The position numbers and the translations under genes were made by a program. Positions 14,342 to 30,456 of a stretch of DNA of 38,392 nt are shown one piece after another. Below the pieces are notes generated by a model. It was not told where the DNA came from. It was given only the letters and a program-made list of their open reading frames with translations, and did not search any database. Origin of the DNA: Armatimonadota bacterium (GTDB lineage: Bacteria; Vulcanimicrobiota; JACPDT01); NCBI GenBank assembly GCA_016183865.1, contig JACPDT010000279.1, forward strand, positions 1-38,392. Reading direction: 5' to 3'. Position 1 is the first letter of the stretch; each line of letters begins with the position of its first letter.

Positions 14342-14961
14342 ACCATTTCCAATTTTCCCACTCGAATCTTGTCCCCTGAATTGAGGGGCTGAGGGGCGCC
14401 CTTGGAAAGCCGCATGTTGTTCACAAAGGTCCCATTGGAAGATCCCAGATCCTCCAGGGCGTACTGGTCGTCCTTCAGAGAGAACTGGGCATGTTTCCTG
14501 GAGATATAGGCATCCTTGTCCTCTTCCGTCAGGTCCACGTCAGGGAAGACTCCGTCTGCAGGGCTTTGGCGGCCGACGAGGACGACCTCCTTCTCCAGGG
14601 GAAATTCCTTGTTCGTTGCCGTAACGACCAGTCTTGCTTTCAGGGAAGGGACGACAGCCCCTTCTCCTCCCCCTTGAGGGGGGAGGCCGGGTGGGGGAGC
14701 GGTCGCCTCCGCCGAAACCGCCGTCGCGACTCCAAGAGCTGCCCCGCAGTCCGAGCAATAGGCTTCCCCTGCCTCGTTTTTCGCGCCGCATGCGCCACAC
14801 TGGACTGTTCCCCCAGTTGCCGCAGGAGGAGGTGGGGGAGGAGGAGGCGGTGCAGCTCCTTCCGTCATCGTAGCTACAGTCCCCGCCGCCAGTTTGGCCC
14901 CGCAATCTTCGCAGTAGGCGGCGCCTTCAATATTATCCGATCCGCAACTCGGGCATTTCAT
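14323..14961 (-). CDS. Double zinc-ribbon + FHA-domain protein
   Basis: Two CxxC..CxxCG ribbons (MKCPSCGSD..CEDCGAKL; CGACGAKN..CSDCGAAL) are separated by a poly-Pro stretch. The C-terminal FHA is VLVGR....D..L.....ISRKHA.F.......LEDLGSSNGTFVN. Its 3' end overlaps rqcH convergently by 19 nt. Confidence 0.9.
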   Translation of the reverse strand: MKCPSCGSDNIEGAAYCEDCGAKLAAGTVATMTEGAAPPPPPPPPPAATGGTVQCGACGAKNEAGEAYCSDCGAALGVATAVSAEATAPPPGLPPQGGGEGAVVPSLKARLVVTATNKEFPLEKEVVLVGRQSPADGVFPDVDLTEEDKDAYISRKHAQFSLKDDQYALEDLGSSNGTFVNNMRLSKGAPQPLNSGDKIRVGKLEMVYTVVT

Positions 14962-14997
14962 ATGGTCTCAGCCTCCTTAGCCTTTATTATAATAAGA

Positions 14998-16284
14998 TCA
15001 GGGTTTCGGATTTTGGATCATTGTCTCATCCAGCAATTGGGTCAATTTTCTAGTGCCGTATTCCAGTTTCTTGGTTCCTGCCGCAGAGGCAGTCCCGCCT
15101 TTTTCGAGCCTTGCCGCTTCTTCCTTGAAGGTATTGGCGAGGTCGGACTGGCCCCGATCCAGCAGAGTCGTCGCGGCGGAGCGCAGCAATTGCGTCGCTT
15201 TGCCGGTTTCCCCGGACTGGACCAATTCCAGGGCCTTGGTTTGCTGCTTGAACACGCTCACAAGATCCACGATATTCATCACTTCACCGTCCACCATGCC
15301 CGCCAGAGCCGCATCGCTCGTATAGTTGACGACTACATCGGCCGAGACCGTGTCTCCCGCCCGTCTTTGGGAGAGGATGTCGTATGCAACCTGCACCTGG
15401 GCGATGCGAAAGGTTCCCGATGGGCGGGATGGAAGGACCAGCTCGCACAGAATGGATTGGGGCTCGTTTTTCTGAAGATCGCTGAGCTTCACGGTCATGG
15501 TTCGGTCCGAAAGAGCCGGCGCCCCCATGTCATTGATCAATGGCTTCACTTTGAAGACCCTTCGCACCTGGATGTCTTTGCTCACTTTGAGCTTGAGCTG
15601 AATATTCTGGACCACAACGGACTGGACCCCTCTCAATTCCTGGGCAAAAATCTGGGGTATGTCTCTCGGGTCATCAATGTAATAAGACTTTCCGCCTGAG
15701 AGCTCAGCGATCCGGATCAGGAGCTTTTCGTTGAAGTCACTGCCGACCCCCATGGTCGAGAAAGAGAGCCCTCTCGATGTTCCGCCTCTTGCCCGATCTA
15801 TGCACTCGTCCTCATGCAGCGTCAAGCCGTCTGTGAGAAGAACCACGTGATTCACCTTGTCCGGCGCGAGGTGTTTCTCCACCTCATCAATGGCGGCGCG
15901 GATACCCCTGTTCATCTCCGTCCCGCCTCCGACGTCCACGTCGTCAATTCTCTGGATCATTCGCTTGACCCCGCCCTTGTCAAAAATTTGCTGGGAGGGG
16001 ATCATGACCCGGGCCCTGTCGGCAAAAGCTATAATGGAAACCAGATCCTCAGGGCGAAGCTGGTCCACGACATACTGGACAGCCTGTTTCACATAATCAA
16101 TTTTTTCCGCCGCATACATGGAGCCGCTCTTGTCCAGAACCAGCGCCATATTCAGGGCAGCTTCGGCGAAGGACGTCTGACCTGAAGGACTGATTTCCAA
16201 AAGCAGATAGACCAGCTTGTTCTCACTGGATACGAGCACATTGCTGTAGCTCAGCCTTGGCGCCAGATTCACTTCCTGTGACAT
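14998..16284 (-). CDS. von Willebrand factor type A (vWA) protein, TerY-like, with ~200-aa C-terminal extension
   Basis: MIDAS residues are intact: LVLDKSGSM (DxSxS), GGGTEM (Thr) and VLLTDGLT (Asp). Confidence 0.9.
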   Translation of the reverse strand: MSQEVNLAPRLSYSNVLVSSENKLVYLLLEISPSGQTSFAEAALNMALVLDKSGSMYAAEKIDYVKQAVQYVVDQLRPEDLVSIIAFADRARVMIPSQQIFDKGGVKRMIQRIDDVDVGGGTEMNRGIRAAIDEVEKHLAPDKVNHVVLLTDGLTLHEDECIDRARGGTSRGLSFSTMGVGSDFNEKLLIRIAELSGGKSYYIDDPRDIPQIFAQELRGVQSVVVQNIQLKLKVSKDIQVRRVFKVKPLINDMGAPALSDRTMTVKLSDLQKNEPQSILCELVLPSRPSGTFRIAQVQVAYDILSQRRAGDTVSADVVVNYTSDAALAGMVDGEVMNIVDLVSVFKQQTKALELVQSGETGKATQLLRSAATTLLDRGQSDLANTFKEEAARLEKGGTASAAGTKKLEYGTRKLTQLLDETMIQNPKP

Positions 16285-23719: not shown

Positions 23720-24718
23720 ATGGGCCTTTATTCATGCAGAATTTTCCCAGCTACTATGATCACCTGCCTGGCTTATTCAAAGAAAAAGCTCGAGACCCAG
23801 GTGGATTTCAGCCTCATAAGCGACATTCTCCCTGACCGCAGGAATCTGGTCTGGGTGGATGTGTCGGATCCGACCGATTCCGACATGGCTGTCCTGAAAG
23901 AGGAATTCGAGTTCCACCACCTTGCCCTTGAGGATGCGGCCAAACAGCAGCAAAGACCCAAGGTGGACGAATATCCCGGGTACTTCTATCTGGTCATTTA
24001 CGCCCTTGCTTATAGTGAAGAGGACCGGCAATTCACGGAAAGGGAGATTGACATCTTCGTCGGTCGGAACTATATGGTAACGATACACAGGGATGAGATC
24101 CCTGCGGTCCAGCAGAGCCTTCAGCGCTGGACTCAGAACCCTGACATGATGGGGGAGGGGATCGGCTTTCTTCTTTACGCTCTTGTGGACAGAATCATTG
24201 ACGAATATTTCCCTGTTCTTGACGAGCTGGATGACCGCATAGAGGTCCTGGAGCAGAAGATTTTTGAGGCCTTCGACCCTGCTGCTTTGCAGGAGATATT
24301 CGTCTTGAAGCGCACCCTCCTCAAGTTCAGAAAGATTCTTGCGCCGACCCGGGATATTTTCAATCTTTTGATCCGCCAGGACCAGCCCTTGTTCTCACAC
24401 CATACATTGCTCTATTTTCAGGATGTGTACGACCACTTGATCCGGATTTTGGACGCCGTGGATCTTTGCAGGGATATGCTGGCAGGCACTCTGGAAGCCC
24501 ACCTTTCCGTTGTGTCGAACCGTATGAGCTCCGTAATGAAGACATTGACCATTGTGGCTACGATCCTCATGACGGCGGCACTGATTACGGGCTTTTTCGG
24601 GATGAATGTGGAGTTTCCCTCACAGGTGCCCAAGTACGGTTTCATGGGCGTTATCTGGAGCATGGCCCTTCTCACTTCAGGGATGATCTTTTTTTTCTGG
24701 AAGATCGGATGGTTCTAA
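23720..24718 (+). CDS. corA: CorA-family magnesium/cobalt transporter
   Basis: VWVDVSDPTDSDMAVLKEEFEFHHLALED at the N-terminus, two C-terminal TM helices, and the signature FFGMNVEF (GMN motif). Confidence 0.9.
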   Translation: MGLYSCRIFPATMITCLAYSKKKLETQVDFSLISDILPDRRNLVWVDVSDPTDSDMAVLKEEFEFHHLALEDAAKQQQRPKVDEYPGYFYLVIYALAYSEEDRQFTEREIDIFVGRNYMVTIHRDEIPAVQQSLQRWTQNPDMMGEGIGFLLYALVDRIIDEYFPVLDELDDRIEVLEQKIFEAFDPAALQEIFVLKRTLLKFRKILAPTRDIFNLLIRQDQPLFSHHTLLYFQDVYDHLIRILDAVDLCRDMLAGTLEAHLSVVSNRMSSVMKTLTIVATILMTAALITGFFGMNVEFPSQVPKYGFMGVIWSMALLTSGMIFFFWKIGWF

Positions 24719-27700
24719 CCGGCTCTTCCGGTTCCAGGGATCGTCTTTTCTTGACTCTGGCGCTCTTGTGCGGTCTTGCGGGGCTTATCATTACTCTCGT
24801 GTTGCACAACAGGGCTTTTCCTTCCGCTTCCCTGGATCTTGCGGTTTCCCGGGAGGAGGCGGAGACCGGGGCCAGGAGCTTCCTTCTGGCAAGGGGCCAT
24901 GATCTTTCCGGCTTCCGTGCGGCAGTGGCCTTTAATCACGATCAATCGGCTCTGAACTATCTGGAAAGGACCTGGGGACTCTTCCGGATCAATCCTCTCA
25001 TCAAAAAAGAGCTTTCCGTCTGGTACTGGGATGTCCGTTTCTTTCGTCCTCTGGAGCGGGAGGGATTTCAGGTCCGAATTGACCCCGGCGGGAGAGTGGC
25101 GGCTTTTGAGCACACTCTTCGGGAGGAAAGCCCCGGCAAGGACCTTCCCGCGAAAGAGGCAAGGATTCGGTGTGCGGCATTTCTAGAATCCATGGGATGG
25201 GATCTCCGCGAGTTTCGCCCCCTGGCGGAGAAAACGGAGAAAAAGCCCCATCGCACAGACCATCGTTTTGTGTGGGAGAGGAGCAATCCCCCCCTCCCGG
25301 GTCTTCGATACTGGGTCGCTGCCTCCCTGGCAGGCGAGGAGATCTCTTTTTTTTCCGAATCGGTCAAGGTCCCTGAGAGCTTTCTTGCGGCAGAGGCGAA
25401 GGAGGGCGAATCGGGACAGCTTCTGGCCCTGGCCGGCACGTTTCTCTGGTTTCTCATGTTCCTGGGGCTTGTGGTAAGTTTCGTGAAATCCCTGAGGGCC
25501 CGGACCGTGGACTGGACCCTGAGCCGGAGGGTCGGATGGATCCTCGCGGGGATCTCTCTCCTCCTGGGATTGAACTCCATTCCCATTTCCTGGTGGCACT
25601 ATGATCCGGAAGTCTCTTACGGGTATTTCTGGTTCACCCAGATTTTGACTTTCCTGGTTTCCACGGCCGTTCTCTGCCTGGGTACGGTCCTGGTTGCCGG
25701 AGCGGCTGACCCCCTGTGGCGTGGGCTGTTTCCCGGCCGCCCTGCCCTTGATTCCTTCCTGACCCTTCCGGGGCTCAGGCGCCGATCCAGTGCTGTCGGG
25801 GTTCTGGTGGGATATGGGGCGGCCTTTGCCTTTCTCGGCTACCAGGTTCTCTTTTATCTTGGGGCGAGAAAAATCGGAGCATGGTCTCCCCTTGAGATCC
25901 CCTATGACGATGTTCTCAGTACGGCCCTGCCCTGGGTCTATCCTCTTTTTATCGGGTTTTCCGCCGCCTTGAGTGAGGAGTTTTTCTTTCGCTTCTTTGC
26001 CGTGAGCTGGCTCCTGCGGATTACGGGGAGGAAATGGGTCGCCCTTGTGCTCCCTGCCGTGATCTGGGCCATTCTCCACTGCAACTATCCCCAGCAGCCT
26101 TTCTATATTCGAGGAATCGAGCTTGCCGTGGTCGGGATTGCCTGGGGACTCCTCCTTCTCCGGTATGGAGTCATCACAACGGTGACTGCTCATTATGTTT
26201 TCAACGCGGCTCAAGGGTCCGCCCTTCTGCTCATGTCCGACAACCTTTATTTCAGGGTTTCCGCGATCATCACGGTTCTATTGATGCTGTTTCCCCTCTT
26301 TTTCGCCTTTCGGAAGGTTGCAACAGGAAAAGAGGAGGATGTCACGTACACGGAGCGAGAGCTTCCTGAAGATGCCGTTCCGCAGGCGCCGCCTCTTTCG
26401 GCTCATCCTCTTTCGGCGCCTTACACCATCCCTTTTTCGTTACCCAGGAGAACGGCTCTCCTGGGGCTGTCTTTTGCGGGCTTTCTCCTTCTTTATCTCG
26501 TGCCGACGGCTTCTCCCGGCGAGAAAACCCGCTGGTGGTGCGATTTGTACAAGGCCCGGGAGGAAGGCAGCCGGTCTCTTCAGGCTCGCGGAGTACAGAC
26601 TCAGGGCAAGTGGTCAGGGTTCTCGCTGACCCCTCTTGATGACGAGTCTCTGCGATATCTGGTGCAGGAGGCGGGAGTCAGCCGCGCATACGCGGTCCTG
26701 GAAAAGAGGCTTCCCCTACTGCTCATGAAAGGGGCATGGTTTGCGCCGGACAGCCGGGAACGTTACGAAGTGTGGCTCCTTCCCGATGGGAGGCCTTTTC
26801 GGTACGAGCATGAGATTCCTGAGGAGCGACCCGGGGGGCGACTTTCCGCCAGGGAAGCCAGAGATCTTGCCCTGAAGGGCCTTCTCGATTCGGGCATTTC
26901 CGTGAAGAACTGGACACTGGTGCAGGCTCGTTCCATCGAGAGACCGGCCCGGACCGATCATTCCCTCGTCTGGGAGGATCCCCTGCCCGTCATAGGCGAG
27001 GGGCGCCTTCGAATTGAAGTCGGAGTTCAGGGGACCGAGCTGACGGGTCCGGCAATCTATCCCAAGGTTCCCGAGTCCTTTCTGCTCAAGGAAAGGGCCC
27101 GGACTGCCTGGAACGGGGTGCAGGAAGGCATTTTGAGTTTCCTGTCCATCGGGCTCCTCACCCTTCTCTTCATATTCTTTTTCTCCGGCGTCCTGAGAGG
27201 GTTGCTGGATTGGAAGCCTGTTGCCCTGTTGTGCGGCTTTGTCTTTATGTGTGTGGCTTCAGGGGTTGCCAATGGATTTCCTGTACTTGCCTTTCATTTC
27301 CCCTCAGATAAGTCTGTGGTCCAGTTGCTGGGTGGGAGCTTTCTGGCAGGGCTTCTCGTGATGGGAGTGTCCCTTTTCATTCTTTTCTCCGCAGTCGCAG
27401 TTGTGGATATTCTCTCAAAGAAGCTGTTGCCCGGGAGTCCCGGACTCCGGACCTGGATCTCCTGGGTTTTCCTCGAATCCAGAGCCGGCCAGGACTGCCT
27501 TCTCGGAGGCCTCTCTCTGGCCCTTCTGGGCGCGGGAATCGCCCGGCTCCTGAAATGGGGGGCCCTGGAGGCGGGAGAGGATCTGCTTCTGACATATCCC
27601 GTGTTTCTGGATACCTGGTTTCCTGCCCTTGGAGTCATCGGCGCAGCCTTCACGGCGGCCGTTGTTTTCCTGGTTACAGCTCTCCTTGTACTCTTCTGGG

Positions 27701-28032
27701 CCCGTCATTTCGGGAAAGGCGCCGCAATAACCGCCTCCATACTTCTGGGGCTTGCCGCAGTCCTGGCTGTCTCGTCGGCGGAGAAACCCGAGGAGATCGG
27801 CTACATTTTTCTCACCCTGGCAGGCTTTCTTGCAGCAGGCAGGGTAATCGTAAAATGGCTCATCCAGGATCGGATTCCCGCGTATTTTTTCGGTATTTTC
27901 TTTTTCCTGATTCTGGAGCTGGGCTTGCCCTATCTGCAAGTCCCCACGACCATGGGTCGCGCAACATCCGTCATACTCGGGTCGCTCCTGATTGCACCAC
28001 TGGTCCTCAATCTCCGGAAACGGCTTCAGTAG
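24709..28032 (+). CDS. Giant (~1100 aa) polytopic CPBP-family (CAAX/Abi) intramembrane protease with duplicated extracytoplasmic modules
   Basis: The ATG at 24709 overlaps the corA stop by 10 nt. CPBP motifs: SEEFFFRFF (EExxxR), AILHCNY (FxxxH-like) and TAHYVFNA (HxxxN). Two homologous ~150-aa soluble modules each end in (H/A)RTDH.(F/L)VWE. Confidence 0.85.
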   Translation: MVLTGSSGSRDRLFLTLALLCGLAGLIITLVLHNRAFPSASLDLAVSREEAETGARSFLLARGHDLSGFRAAVAFNHDQSALNYLERTWGLFRINPLIKKELSVWYWDVRFFRPLEREGFQVRIDPGGRVAAFEHTLREESPGKDLPAKEARIRCAAFLESMGWDLREFRPLAEKTEKKPHRTDHRFVWERSNPPLPGLRYWVAASLAGEEISFFSESVKVPESFLAAEAKEGESGQLLALAGTFLWFLMFLGLVVSFVKSLRARTVDWTLSRRVGWILAGISLLLGLNSIPISWWHYDPEVSYGYFWFTQILTFLVSTAVLCLGTVLVAGAADPLWRGLFPGRPALDSFLTLPGLRRRSSAVGVLVGYGAAFAFLGYQVLFYLGARKIGAWSPLEIPYDDVLSTALPWVYPLFIGFSAALSEEFFFRFFAVSWLLRITGRKWVALVLPAVIWAILHCNYPQQPFYIRGIELAVVGIAWGLLLLRYGVITTVTAHYVFNAAQGSALLLMSDNLYFRVSAIITVLLMLFPLFFAFRKVATGKEEDVTYTERELPEDAVPQAPPLSAHPLSAPYTIPFSLPRRTALLGLSFAGFLLLYLVPTASPGEKTRWWCDLYKAREEGSRSLQARGVQTQGKWSGFSLTPLDDESLRYLVQEAGVSRAYAVLEKRLPLLLMKGAWFAPDSRERYEVWLLPDGRPFRYEHEIPEERPGGRLSAREARDLALKGLLDSGISVKNWTLVQARSIERPARTDHSLVWEDPLPVIGEGRLRIEVGVQGTELTGPAIYPKVPESFLLKERARTAWNGVQEGILSFLSIGLLTLLFIFFFSGVLRGLLDWKPVALLCGFVFMCVASGVANGFPVLAFHFPSDKSVVQLLGGSFLAGLLVMGVSLFILFSAVAVVDILSKKLLPGSPGLRTWISWVFLESRAGQDCLLGGLSLALLGAGIARLLKWGALEAGEDLLLTYPVFLDTWFPALGVIGAAFTAAVVFLVTALLVLFWARHFGKGAAITASILLGLAAVLAVSSAEKPEEIGYIFLTLAGFLAAGRVIVKWLIQDRIPAYFFGIFFFLILELGLPYLQVPTTMGRATSVILGSLLIAPLVLNLRKRLQ

Positions 28033-29180
28033 CGGAAAACCGCGGCAAGGGGTGTTGGGACCGGCATTTCCTCCGGTTCCACCGCATAGACGGTTCCTTT
28101 GTGAACCAGGGTTTGGACAGCGGCCAGGTCCAGCAGATCCTGGCACCCGGGTCCGCCTTCTTCGCAAAAGCGAATCTCTCCTTTGTCCGCATCAACGGTC
28201 CCCCACTGTTGAGAACCCGTGGCGATGAAGAGGAACTCCACTCTTCCGCGAAAGGCCTCTGGAACAATCTCCCGCACGTCCATCGAGGAGCGCCCGGTAC
28301 CCGAAAAATGTTTATACTGGGCAATTGCGAGTCGCCTACCCTCCAGAAAGTGGGGTTTGATGATCTCCCAGGCCTGTTCGTGCAATTCCTTTGGACTGAG
28401 GCGCTCAGGGTTCCCGATGAGTCCCTGATCAACCAGATAAGGATAGGTGTTTACCTCCCTGTAGATGGGATGGAGATAGTCCACAGCAGCCAGGATGAGC
28501 GGTGCGTGCTCGTTTTTCAGTCGCCCATGGAGACCTTTGTCAATCTGGTGACAGTATGTCCTCAGATCTTCTTTCAGGTCCTCATCTCCGACCCCCTGGC
28601 CGTGAAAGATCACCGATTGTCCCCCTGTTCTCCCCTTCGAGCGGGCGTGGAAGTGAACCTGTTTTGCAGGGCTGTCGTATCTTACGGCCTCTTCACGGCT
28701 TCCCGGCACGCCTGGGATCCGCACTTCGCCGATGTTTGCCCGTGTGCCCTGGAGCAGCCTCATGTTGTGCTGGCTCAGAGCCAGAAGAAAAAATTGTCCG
28801 TCCCCGCTGAGCAACGGGAGAAGGGGCTTGATGTGAAAGCGGTCATTGACGGCCACCAATTCTTCGAAATGATAGGGGAGACAGAAATGCCGAAATTCGT
28901 GGGAGGAAAGAAATACCGCCACCCCTCCCTCTTGCCTTCTCCAGAAGGGTCCATCCTCCAGGAGCTTGTGGGCCGGCGCAAGGAACTCATTCACTTCTCT
29001 TGTGCGGAGCCCTTTGGTGGCCAGATTCTCCCCTGCCTGACGAACCATGTTTTTGAACCGAATCATGTTGTTTTGTTGTGCTTCCACCCCCCCGGGATGA
29101 GCGGGCATGAAGAGAGAGACGCACAGGTTGGTGTGTTTTTCGATGAGTGCCTCAACATCGTTTCTTGTCAGGGTCGCCAT
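28026..29180 (-). CDS. Bacterial eRF1-like (baeRF-family) protein, function unknown
   Basis: Strong SD (AGGAGAGG). N-terminal VSLFMPAHPGGVEAQQNNMIRFKNMVRQAGENL, FWRRQ..GVAVFLS, FHIKPLLPLL, FFLLALSQHNMRLL, the FHGQGVG loop, PLILAAVDYL.PIYREVN.YP and the C-terminal LAAVFRY tail all fit my memory of the baeRF family consensus. No search was run. Confidence 0.65.
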   Translation of the reverse strand: MATLTRNDVEALIEKHTNLCVSLFMPAHPGGVEAQQNNMIRFKNMVRQAGENLATKGLRTREVNEFLAPAHKLLEDGPFWRRQEGGVAVFLSSHEFRHFCLPYHFEELVAVNDRFHIKPLLPLLSGDGQFFLLALSQHNMRLLQGTRANIGEVRIPGVPGSREEAVRYDSPAKQVHFHARSKGRTGGQSVIFHGQGVGDEDLKEDLRTYCHQIDKGLHGRLKNEHAPLILAAVDYLHPIYREVNTYPYLVDQGLIGNPERLSPKELHEQAWEIIKPHFLEGRRLAIAQYKHFSGTGRSSMDVREIVPEAFRGRVEFLFIATGSQQWGTVDADKGEIRFCEEGGPGCQDLLDLAAVQTLVHKGTVYAVEPEEMPVPTPLAAVFRY

Positions 29181-29326
29181 AGGGATCCTCTCCTTTCCAG
29201 AGGGACAGGACTGCTGCCTATGAAGTATTTACCCTGATTTGCGAGGATCATAACCGCAATTCATCCCCACAGAGACACAGAGAGCACGGAGAACTTCAGG
29301 TAACCCGGCAGGTCCTGAGACTTATT

Positions 29327-30148
29327 CTAACTATGGCGGCTCCGGGAACGTCGTGAATGGGCAACGGGTCCGTTCGGATGAACAGGCTGGCTCAGGGAGG
29401 CATTCCAGGTTCGTTCCACGTATTCTTCAATGGAGAAGTTGCGGGGCCTCCTGGAAGGAGTGGCGAGAAGCTGAATTTTCTGTATTCGGTCCCCCTTCAA
29501 GACCACGATTTTCGAGGTCTTGGGAAAATGGGCGACAAGATACCAGTTGCATTTTTGGTAGAAGAGACCGTATGGTTCCACAAGCTCGATTGAGACCTCT
29601 TGCCTCGCCCGGGGCGTGCTGCCCGTCTCCTCAGGGGAGAAGGTGATTCGGGTCTGCAATCTTCGGGTCAAGGCCTGCTCCAGCACTCCGATCGTCGTTC
29701 TGAGAGGTTGATGGATTCGGGATCGTAGGAGTCCGTCGCCCTTTGGGCCGGCCTTGCGGGGGCCCGGCACACCGGCCACCTTTTCTTTTAGCTTCGAATC
29801 GGTGGCAAAAAAGCCATTCGTCAAGGTTTCCTCGATTTTTTTCGCAACTCCAGCCATGGTGGCTGAAACAGGCGTCTTTCTTGCCTCCTTGGCGCCGCAG
29901 CAGTGCAGAATGGAGAGAACCTCCTCAAAAGTCAAAGGAATCGGCGGAAGGAGAATCCCCGGAAGAACCTTGTAACCCTCCTCCTGATAGAGGGGAACCA
30001 GGTAGGAAAGGCGCTCGAGGTCCCTGTAGACGGTTCTAAGCGAGCATTCCAGCCTTTCCGCCATGTCTCGAGGTCTGAGACCGCGGCTTTTCTGAGTGCT
30101 GAGGAGGAGATGGAGCAACCGAAGAAAGCGCTGATTTGCCTTGTTCAC
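29327..30148 (-). CDS. HTH-WYL-domain transcriptional regulator, short form lacking the C-terminal extension (WYL-2)
   Basis: wHTH (RFLRLLHLLL....DMAERLECSLRTVYRDLERL). WYL core (VEPYGLFYQKCNWYLVAHFPKTSKIVVLKGDRIQKIQLL). GTG start with AGGAGG 7 nt upstream. The N-terminal half aligns with WYL-1 (LP..L.P.PL.F.EVL). Confidence 0.8.
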   Translation of the reverse strand: MNKANQRFLRLLHLLLSTQKSRGLRPRDMAERLECSLRTVYRDLERLSYLVPLYQEEGYKVLPGILLPPIPLTFEEVLSILHCCGAKEARKTPVSATMAGVAKKIEETLTNGFFATDSKLKEKVAGVPGPRKAGPKGDGLLRSRIHQPLRTTIGVLEQALTRRLQTRITFSPEETGSTPRARQEVSIELVEPYGLFYQKCNWYLVAHFPKTSKIVVLKGDRIQKIQLLATPSRRPRNFSIEEYVERTWNASLSQPVHPNGPVAHSRRSRSRHS

Positions 30149-30171
30149 ACAGGCCTCCTGGTAAGGAAATT

Positions 30172-30213
30172 GGGAATATCGTACAAACCTGAATGGTAAT
30201 ATTTAATATTCCC
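30172..30213. promoter_or_regulatory. Inverted repeat in the AT-rich promoter region of WYL-2 (candidate operator)
   Basis: GGGAATAT (30172-30179) and ATATTCCC (30206-30213) are perfect reverse complements, 26 nt apart. A doubled AATATT lies just inside the right arm. The left arm begins 24 nt upstream of the WYL-2 GTG start. Confidence 0.3.
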
Positions 30214-30456
30214 ATAAGGATTTCCTCTTCATAGTAAAAATCAATTGTCCTTTCTCTATGACGGACAATACAGAGTCGAAAGGAGTGGTCGCTCCGGATG
30301 GAAGGCTTCAATGTACCGCCGCTACTTGCATCGCAGGGGTAGCCGCCCTGCAGGCTCTGCTGCTCCCCATGGGACTTGAAGACTTCCCTGAGTGCCTGGG
30401 GAGGGGCTCGGGGAATCGGACGCGACGAATCGCGTCTCTCCTTCCCCTTGAGGAGA

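Follow-up and report, generated by a model that had tools for sequence, protein, structure and literature searches.

Arrangement of the WYL regulator gene and the Balon-like gene

The contig JACPDT010000279.1 of an Armatimonadota bacterium (assembly GCA_016183865.1) carries, side by side, a gene for a 273-amino-acid (aa) regulator with a WYL domain and a gene for a 384-aa protein related to the ribosome hibernation factor Balon. The stretch analysed, referred to here as the window, is the entire 38-kb contig (38,392 nucleotides, nt); the genome itself, 4.41 Mb in 353 contigs, was assembled from groundwater metagenomes. Four public runs were found for the source, all of them groundwater metagenomes and all listed as DNA. 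Both open reading frames (ORFs) lie on the minus strand, that of the 384-aa protein at 28026-29180 with an ATG start and that of the 273-aa protein at 29327-30148 with a GTG start. An earlier note on this DNA, made from the sequence alone, had described the two ORFs, a distance of 146 nt between them and a strong Shine-Dalgarno sequence before the 384-aa ORF. The spacer (29181-29326) is exactly 146 nt long, and AGGAG was read directly from the sequence 9 nt before the ATG. The peptide motifs quoted at that time are all present in the translation as well: SLFMPAHPGGVEAQQNNMIRFKN at residues 22-44, FHGQGVG at residues 192-198 and LAAVFRY at residues 378-384. The genes and their immediate signals are as follows.

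28026..29180, minus strand: gene for a homologue of the Balon-family hibernation factors (baeRF-1 clade, aeRF1 superfamily), 384 aa; assigned by Pfam, NCBIfam and PDB searches, hhalign, AF2 and Foldseek
29190..29194, minus strand: Shine-Dalgarno sequence AGGAG of the Balon-like gene, 9 nt 5' of the ATG; direct sequence reading
29181..29326, minus strand: 146-nt spacer from the WYL gene to the Balon-like gene; examined by terminator scan, fold z-score and motif search
29327..30148, minus strand: gene for a short-form HTH-WYL (helix-turn-helix, WYL) regulator, 273 aa; assigned by Pfam HTH_11 and WYL and by the PADLOC WYL profile
30154..30159, minus strand: Shine-Dalgarno sequence AGGAGG of the WYL gene, 5 nt 5' of the GTG; direct sequence reading

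Assignment of the 384-aa protein to the Balon family

Three domains are recognized in the 384-aa protein, an N domain (about residues 1-125), an M domain (about 130-292) and a C domain (about 295-384). Residues 129-313 matched the Pfam models baeRF_family7 (E 1.7e-45, 155 bits), baeRF_family3 (E 6.3e-42, 144.2 bits) and baeRF_family6 (E 1.4e-38, 133 bits), all far above the gathering thresholds of these models, which are about 27-31 bits. Balon itself matches the same models and scores 105.6 bits with baeRF_family3, against 144.2 bits for the 384-aa protein. NCBIfam returned a full-length alignment (3-361 of 361, E 2.3e-33, 116 bits) to NF052287 ('AOC03_06830 family ribosome hibernation factor'); in Psychrobacter urativorans, Balon has the locus tag AOC03_06830.

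A search of the PDB with the single sequence gave one real match, chain B of the Balon entries 8RD8, 8RDV and 8RDW (E 2.5e-8 for 8RD8_B), with an alignment that spans query residues 10-384 and Balon residues 6-369. This chain was deposited under the name 'Methyl-accepting chemotaxis protein', a legacy error of annotation by which look-ups by name can be misled. A family profile built from 36 homologues matched 8RD8_B at E 5.9e-36 and Msmeg1130 at E 0.0064, and for the same profile and the Balon sequence hhalign returned a probability of 99.5%, with 357 aligned columns that reach from the N terminus as far as the common C-terminal ...RY.

A first AF2 model, built from the 36-sequence alignment, was poor (pLDDT 61, Foldseek TM ~0.3) and was replaced by a second model built from 136 diverse homologues (pLDDT 91.4, pTM 0.85). 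When this model was compared with the PDB by Foldseek, the top six matches were all Balon-family chains: the three Balon entries at TM 0.59-0.63, Msmeg1130 at 0.60-0.62 and Rv2629 at 0.50-0.52. Chains of aRF1/eRF1 followed at TM 0.24-0.39, and those of Pelota were lower still. The assignment made in the earlier note, to the eRF1-like baeRF clade, is thus borne out by the Pfam profiles that it had proposed to search, by the PDB profile search and hhalign, and by fold matches of the eRF1/Pelota type, with the Balon-family chains ranked first. The protein is of the same length class as Balon, Msmeg1130 and Rv2629, has the same three-domain aeRF1-like architecture and aligns from end to end.

The family is very large: of the clusters formed at 50% identity, 8,074 match the 384-aa protein with an E-value of 1e-3 or less, and 3,431 with one of 1e-30 or less. 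The Balon-like gene is present as a single copy in the genome. The only long HPF is encoded by a 177-aa ORF on another contig (C173:14519-15052, minus strand), which matches PF02482 (Ribosomal_S30AE) with 100 bits at 14777-15046; this gene, unlinked to the Balon-like gene, is the canonical hibernation factor gene of the genome. Balon-bearing genomes are reported to encode HPF as well (bioRxiv 10.1101/2022.11.24.517861), and the presence of one Balon-like gene and one long HPF gene fits this reported co-occurrence of RaiA/HPF with Balon.

Functions described for the family

The baeRF-1 clade was defined through comparative genomics in 2019 by Burroughs and Aravind, who predicted for it a role in the negative regulation of translation, without catalysis and in connection with HPF (PMC6514570). 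The earlier note took the family to be without any member of demonstrated biochemical role, a view now out of date: the Balon family has been characterised since 2024, and Balon (8RD8, 8RDV, 8RDW), Msmeg1130 and Rv2629 (8V9J, 8V9K, 8V9L) have been defined by cryo-electron microscopy as hibernation factors bound in the ribosomal A site (Helena-Bueno et al., PMC10901736). In that work, all three proteins lack NIKS and GGQ. The decoding centre is contacted by an 'HP motif' that reaches A1492 and A1913, with no contact to the mRNA; a lasso-like loop at the peptidyl transferase centre (PTC) wall wraps A2602, and the tail of bL27 is trapped; and a beta-hairpin of the C domain makes the contact with EF-Tu. 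The solved relatives are all non-catalytic and leave the PTC inert. Mycobacterial homologues were assayed in a GFP translation test, and P. arcticus deficient in Balon was compared with its wild type as the cells recovered from a long stationary phase, a recovery that the deletion affects (PMC10901736). A 2026 preprint further describes a Balon homologue on the hibernating ribosomes of Synechocystis, where it makes extensive rRNA contacts at the decoding centre and the PTC via residues unlike those of Psychrobacter Balon (bioRxiv 10.64898/2026.07.03.736309).

Conserved motifs and the loop of the M domain

Conservation of the motifs was assessed by column counts in 151 representatives of the family, less than 50% identical to one another. 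The features of the 384-aa protein that were compared with Balon are these.

29043..29123, minus strand: N-domain signature, residues 20-46 (CVSLFMPAHPGGVEAQQNNMIRFKNMV), the best-conserved stretch common with Balon (VSIFVKTHREHPANDQDPIALKN); alignments
28587..28670, minus strand: flexible M-domain loop, residues 171-198, directly before the long helix 199-220; contains GGQ (186-188) and FHGQG
28593-28607, minus strand: FHGQG, residues 192-196, conserved in the clade; column counts in the 151 relatives
28167..28205, minus strand: beta-hairpin inserted into the Pelota-like C-terminal domain at residues 326-338 (WGTVDADKGEIRF); AF2 strands 326-330 and 335-338, pLDDT >90

The N-domain signature, which can be written VS[IL][FY]..TH....QQ[DN]P.I.[LF]KN, is common to Balon and the 384-aa protein, as is the C-terminal A-A-x-[FL]-R-Y. 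Within the signature, S22, Q36, R41, K43 and N44 are near-invariant among the relatives. This is the region said to hold the decoding-centre HP motif of Balon; H28-P29 is present in the 384-aa protein, most clade members have H-R at these positions, and the N-terminal loop aligns strongly with that of Balon. In the C domain, the hairpin at residues 326-338 aligns to the hairpin region of Balon, with W326 in 141 of the 151 relatives and G327 in every one. It corresponds to the EF-Tu-facing hairpin of Balon (PMC10901736) and to the two-strand insert described by Burroughs and Aravind (PMC6514570).

The loop at residues 171-198 is the only low-confidence (disordered) segment of the AF2 model, with pLDDT 52-57, and in this model it takes the topological position of the GGQ loop of aeRF1 and of the lasso loop of Balon. 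It contains a conserved motif, [FY]-H-G-[HQ]-G, whose five columns hold F or Y (106 and 26 of the 151), H (124), G (145), H or Q (76 and 50) and G (127). Compared with Balon, the lasso-equivalent loop is 9 residues longer, and the motif has no counterpart in the Psychrobacter protein. Judged from these alignments, the [FY]HG[HQ]G insertion marks a very large clade that includes the cyanobacterial homologues. Those of Nostoc and Cylindrospermum, the closest relatives from named genomes, are 40-43% identical to the 384-aa protein and share the FHGQG loop, and a profile of the subfamily scored up to 600 bits in cyanobacterial genomes, as high as with the 384-aa protein itself. The Synechocystis homologue probably belongs to the same clade; its contact residues at the decoding centre and PTC differ from those of Psychrobacter Balon, in keeping with the distinct loop of the clade.

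Of the two motifs of aeRF1, NIKS was found in none of the 151 relatives, the 384-aa protein included. A literal GGQ is present at residues 186-188 of the 384-aa protein, but GGQ occurs anywhere in only 15 of the 151, and the column of Q188 is mostly Arg. The protein shares with the Balon family the absence of NIKS, a GGQ that is not conserved, the C-domain hairpin and an HPF/RaiA gene in the genome. In the first two it differs from aeRF1, and the fold matches of aRF1/eRF1 and Pelota rank under all Balon-family chains. With the baeRF-1 clade as described (PMC6514570) it has in common the three domains, the two-strand insert in the Pelota domain, scores above the Pfam thresholds and the absence of a conserved catalytic Gln. 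It departs from that description in one respect, since the broadly distributed baeRF families were reported to conserve the catalytic loop poorly and the loop motif of this clade is strongly conserved.

The loop could also be taken for that of a catalytic release or rescue factor, in which [FY]HG[HQ]G or the GGQ at 186-188 reaches the PTC and hydrolyses peptidyl-tRNA on stalled ribosomes. The loop precedes the long M-domain helix immediately, where aeRF1 has its GGQ loop; this position would suit such an activity, as would the strong conservation of the loop in the 151 relatives, against the poor conservation seen in most baeRF-1 families (PMC6514570), and the presence of both Gln195 and a GGQ tripeptide in the 384-aa protein. 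Neither Gln is conserved, however: position 188 is mostly Arg, and Gln195 alternates with His, which argues against GGQ-type catalysis. Furthermore, the motif is G-x-G rather than G-G-Q, the solved relatives are all non-catalytic with an inert PTC (PMC10901736), and the genomic contexts of the homologues, described below, are those of hibernation and stress rather than of rescue. A catalytic role of this kind is very unlikely. The earlier note had proposed to check whether the HGQG loop superimposes on the GGQ loop; the topological position is the same, but the Gln is not conserved and is His in half of the relatives. That the motif gives the clade a distinct action at the PTC, such as clamping of the CCA end or a His/Gln-assisted hydrolysis of peptidyl-tRNA, here placed in addition under a ligand-sensing WYL switch, is an unlikely reading.

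The WYL gene is a neighbour of the Balon-like gene in this genome only

In the collection of genomes searched, the closest relatives of this genome belong only to the same phylum. Within that phylum, 15 of 251 genomes have a homologue of the 384-aa protein, this genome included. None of the other 14 has a WYL gene near it; all 14 have WYL genes, never on the same contig. A sample of cyanobacterial genomes gave the same result, with homologues in 36 of 151 and a WYL gene near none of the 36. Nor was a WYL gene present in the six metagenome-assembly neighbourhoods of the closest homologues (about 50-54% identity), or in the two upstream ORFs scanned at a locus of a Deltaproteobacteria metagenome-assembled genome. 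The earlier note had envisaged a system of a WYL sensor and a release-factor-fold effector, for which conserved adjacency would be expected; the adjacency was found in 0 of 50 genomes from two phyla and in 0 of 7 further loci, and the proposal of a conserved system does not hold. A WYL association is likewise absent from the report of Burroughs and Aravind (PMC6514570), and no paper in the library that was searched names both 'WYL domain' and 'ribosome hibernation'. The neighbour in this genome also differs from that of Balon, which adjoins raiA.

The surroundings of the homologues are of another kind. The six metagenome neighbourhoods contain genes for Usp, OtsA/OtsB, GT4, S1, CarD, L35, CSD, S30AE (RaiA/HPF), Hsp20, BON/OmpA, sigma-70 factors, PadR and a P-type ATPase, and such stress-gene contexts agree with those published (PMC10901736, Fig. 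2c; PMC6514570). The flanking ORFs at the Deltaproteobacteria locus and at the loci of several sampled genomes encode MoxR, DUF1361 or response regulator-PAS proteins or have no Pfam match.

Two recurring arrangements were observed among these loci. On five metagenome contigs with the closest homologues (L015-L017 and L020-L021), the Balon-like genes lie inside trehalose-synthesis clusters (GT20 OtsA, GT4 and trehalose phosphatase) together with Usp, S1, CarD, L35, CSD and S30AE, a recurring context of desiccation or osmotic stress and translation. In Nostoc and Cylindrospermum (L002-L004), a gene for a membrane protein of 219-223 aa consistently precedes the Balon-like gene on the same strand; the Cylindrospermum copy is DUF1361 (E 6e-52).

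These contexts also bear on whether the pair could be a WYL-controlled defence or abortive-infection module, in which infection or DNA damage is sensed, the release-factor-like protein is induced and translation is shut down. WYL regulators often control defence systems, the 273-aa protein matches the PADLOC WYL profile (E 3e-23 over residues 8-246), the other WYL gene of the genome adjoins a probable Cas3 gene, and blockage of the A site by such a factor would bring translation to a halt. Set against this, the 384-aa protein had no match to a defence system in PADLOC, none of 57 other genomes or loci shows the adjacency, the homologues lie among housekeeping and stress genes, and no mobile-element or defence-island genes flank the pair within the window. 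Moreover, deletion of Balon affects recovery from stationary phase, and no role in phage defence has been reported (PMC10901736). A defence module is very unlikely.

The other WYL gene mentioned above lies outside the window, within contig C226:4506-8204. It encodes an HTH-WYL regulator, partly masked by Ns, with a WCX-like C-terminal part, and it is directly upstream of an 870-aa ORF with the helicase motif DIPTGLGKT, probably Cas3. Because of this neighbour, it looks like a canonical CRISPR- or defence-associated regulator.

The WYL protein is a short-form orphan with an operator-like site in its own promoter

The features of the WYL gene and the region upstream of it are listed below.

29984-30112, minus strand: HTH_11, residues 13-55 of the 273-aa protein; Pfam 26.6 bits against a cut-off of 25
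29471-29686, minus strand: WYL domain, residues 155-226; Pfam 33.9 bits against a cut-off of 21.8
30171..30214, no strand assigned: operator-like cluster of three TGG(G/T)AATAT half-sites at 30171-30179, 30194-30202 and, inverted, 30206-30214; repeat and motif searches

The order of an N-terminal HTH_11 followed by a WYL domain is that of the YafY family, PafBC, DriD, BrxR/CapW and the CRISPR-associated WYL1. Unlike these proteins, the 273-aa protein has no WCX domain: Pfam gave no match to PF25583, the protein ends 47 residues past the WYL domain, and a search in all frames of the spacer that follows the WYL gene showed no frameshifted remnant of WCX. Its nearest relatives among 5.8 billion proteins number just three, are 25-28% identical and 317-321 aa long, and carry PF25583. 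No orthologue above 28% identity was found in that collection for the reverse test of adjacency, and the match to the WYL domains of Caulobacter DriD was weak (E about 0.07). The lack of WCX and the presence of only three distant relatives mark the WYL protein, on sequence grounds, as a short-form orphan. Its neighbour is likewise unlike those of known WYL factors, being a hibernation factor gene and not a defence, DNA-damage or CRISPR gene.

A perfect 9-mer inverted repeat was identified upstream of the WYL gene, with arms TGGGAATAT at 30171-30179 and ATATTCCCA at 30206-30214. Together with the half-site at 30206-30214, a third one, TGGTAATAT at 30194-30202, makes up a near-palindrome. The short-form HTH-WYL regulator with an inverted repeat in its promoter, as the earlier note had it, was thus found on both counts, by Pfam and by the repeat and motif searches. 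The cluster is 44 nt long, lies 23-66 nt upstream of the WYL start, is flanked by GGAAAT/ATTTCC and is located in the AT-richest part of the region, where GC content falls to 0.425. Nowhere else in the 4.41-Mb genome do at least two half-sites occur within 80 nt, and no second palindrome of this kind is present. Because the cluster is unique in the genome, the WYL protein likely regulates its own expression through these half-sites; an operator-like inverted repeat in the gene's own promoter is typical of autoregulated WYL factors.

The spacer between the two genes

On the minus strand of the 146-nt spacer, the terminator scan found no intrinsic terminator, and RNA structure in the spacer was not significant (fold z-score +0.57). 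A scan for sigma-70 promoters on the same strand found none, though such a scan is weak for this lineage. The motif search found no TGG(G/T)AATAT half-site in the spacer, which could hold an independent promoter, and control of a separate Balon-like promoter by the WYL operator is consequently unsupported. The Balon-like gene may be co-transcribed with the WYL gene by read-through.

The alternative, with a likelihood just short of even, is that the two genes are independent neighbours: the WYL protein would control itself or distant targets, and the Balon-like gene would have its own stress promoter within the spacer. This is favoured by the absence of the half-site from the spacer, by the length of 146 nt, which is long for a gap within an operon, by the lack of WYL adjacency in any of the 50 genomes and 7 further loci, and by the expression of homologues elsewhere from unrelated stress operons. 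It is opposed by the common strand of the two genes, by the lack of a terminator or stable hairpin between them, by the negative result of the sigma-70 scan within its limits, and by the occurrence of the operator cluster nowhere else in the genome, which leaves the WYL protein with no other obvious target. Whether the WYL protein gates the hibernation gene or the two genes are independent is about evenly balanced.

Other genes around the pair

The convergent neighbour of the Balon-like gene is a gene for a 1188-aa CPBP/Rce1-like membrane protein at 24466-28032 on the plus strand. The two genes overlap by 7 nt (28026-28032) at their stop codons, and this overlap leaves no room for a terminator of either. 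A DUF362 protein is encoded 308 nt upstream of the WYL gene. A 560-aa open frame at 27555-29237 on the plus strand is antisense to the Balon-like gene; it has no support from homology and is regarded as a shadow ORF of the coding strand, which is GC-rich.

Discussion

The 384-aa gene probably encodes a Balon-type hibernation factor, a bacterial, non-catalytic descendant of aeRF1, next to a lineage-specific WYL regulator that is likely to regulate itself and may set the transcription of the hibernation factor gene. By homology with the solved relatives, the protein would, under stress or in stationary phase, move into the A site of 70S ribosomes that are idle or stalled, with its N domain placed on the decoding centre and the mRNA left unread. 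EF-Tu and the L7/L12 stalk would lie opposite its C domain, which carries the beta-hairpin. At the PTC wall, the loop specific to this clade would form contacts of its own, and the protein would probably act beside the long HPF of this genome. The WYL protein would repress or activate its own promoter via the three half-sites, and, since no terminator lies between the genes, it may thereby also set transcription of the Balon-like gene by read-through.

Several observations weigh against parts of this interpretation. The NF052287 score of 116 bits is far under the curated equivalog cut-off of 330 bits, which sets the 384-aa protein apart as a separate subfamily; it is ~19% identical to Balon and its best Pfam model is baeRF_family7, not family3. 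By these sequence measures it is a paralogous or divergent subfamily and not an equivalog of Psychrobacter Balon. The conserved 9-residue insertion that hhalign places in the PTC-proximal loop, relative to Psychrobacter Balon, means that the PTC contacts of Balon are not directly transferable. The family members studied by experiment are all no closer than about 40% identity to the 384-aa protein. Unlike Balon, the Synechocystis homologue was seen neither with EF-Tu nor on translating ribosomes (bioRxiv 10.64898/2026.07.03.736309), and these two properties of Balon may therefore not be general. As for the regulator, its adjacency to the Balon-like gene occurs in this genome only, and its half-site does not extend to the spacer.

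The main value of these results is corrective: far from being uncharacterised, the eRF1-like protein is one of the Balon family, which is structurally well defined and extremely widespread. The [FY]HG[HQ]G insertion, present in most close relatives, is an obvious target for mutagenesis and for a reading of the Synechocystis structure. The 384-aa gene is an ordinary gene of a known family with one local regulatory curiosity. A WYL input has not so far been linked to ribosome hibernation, and, if confirmed, the drive of a hibernation gene by a WYL protein would be a new input signal for hibernation control, as a single instance rather than a conserved system.

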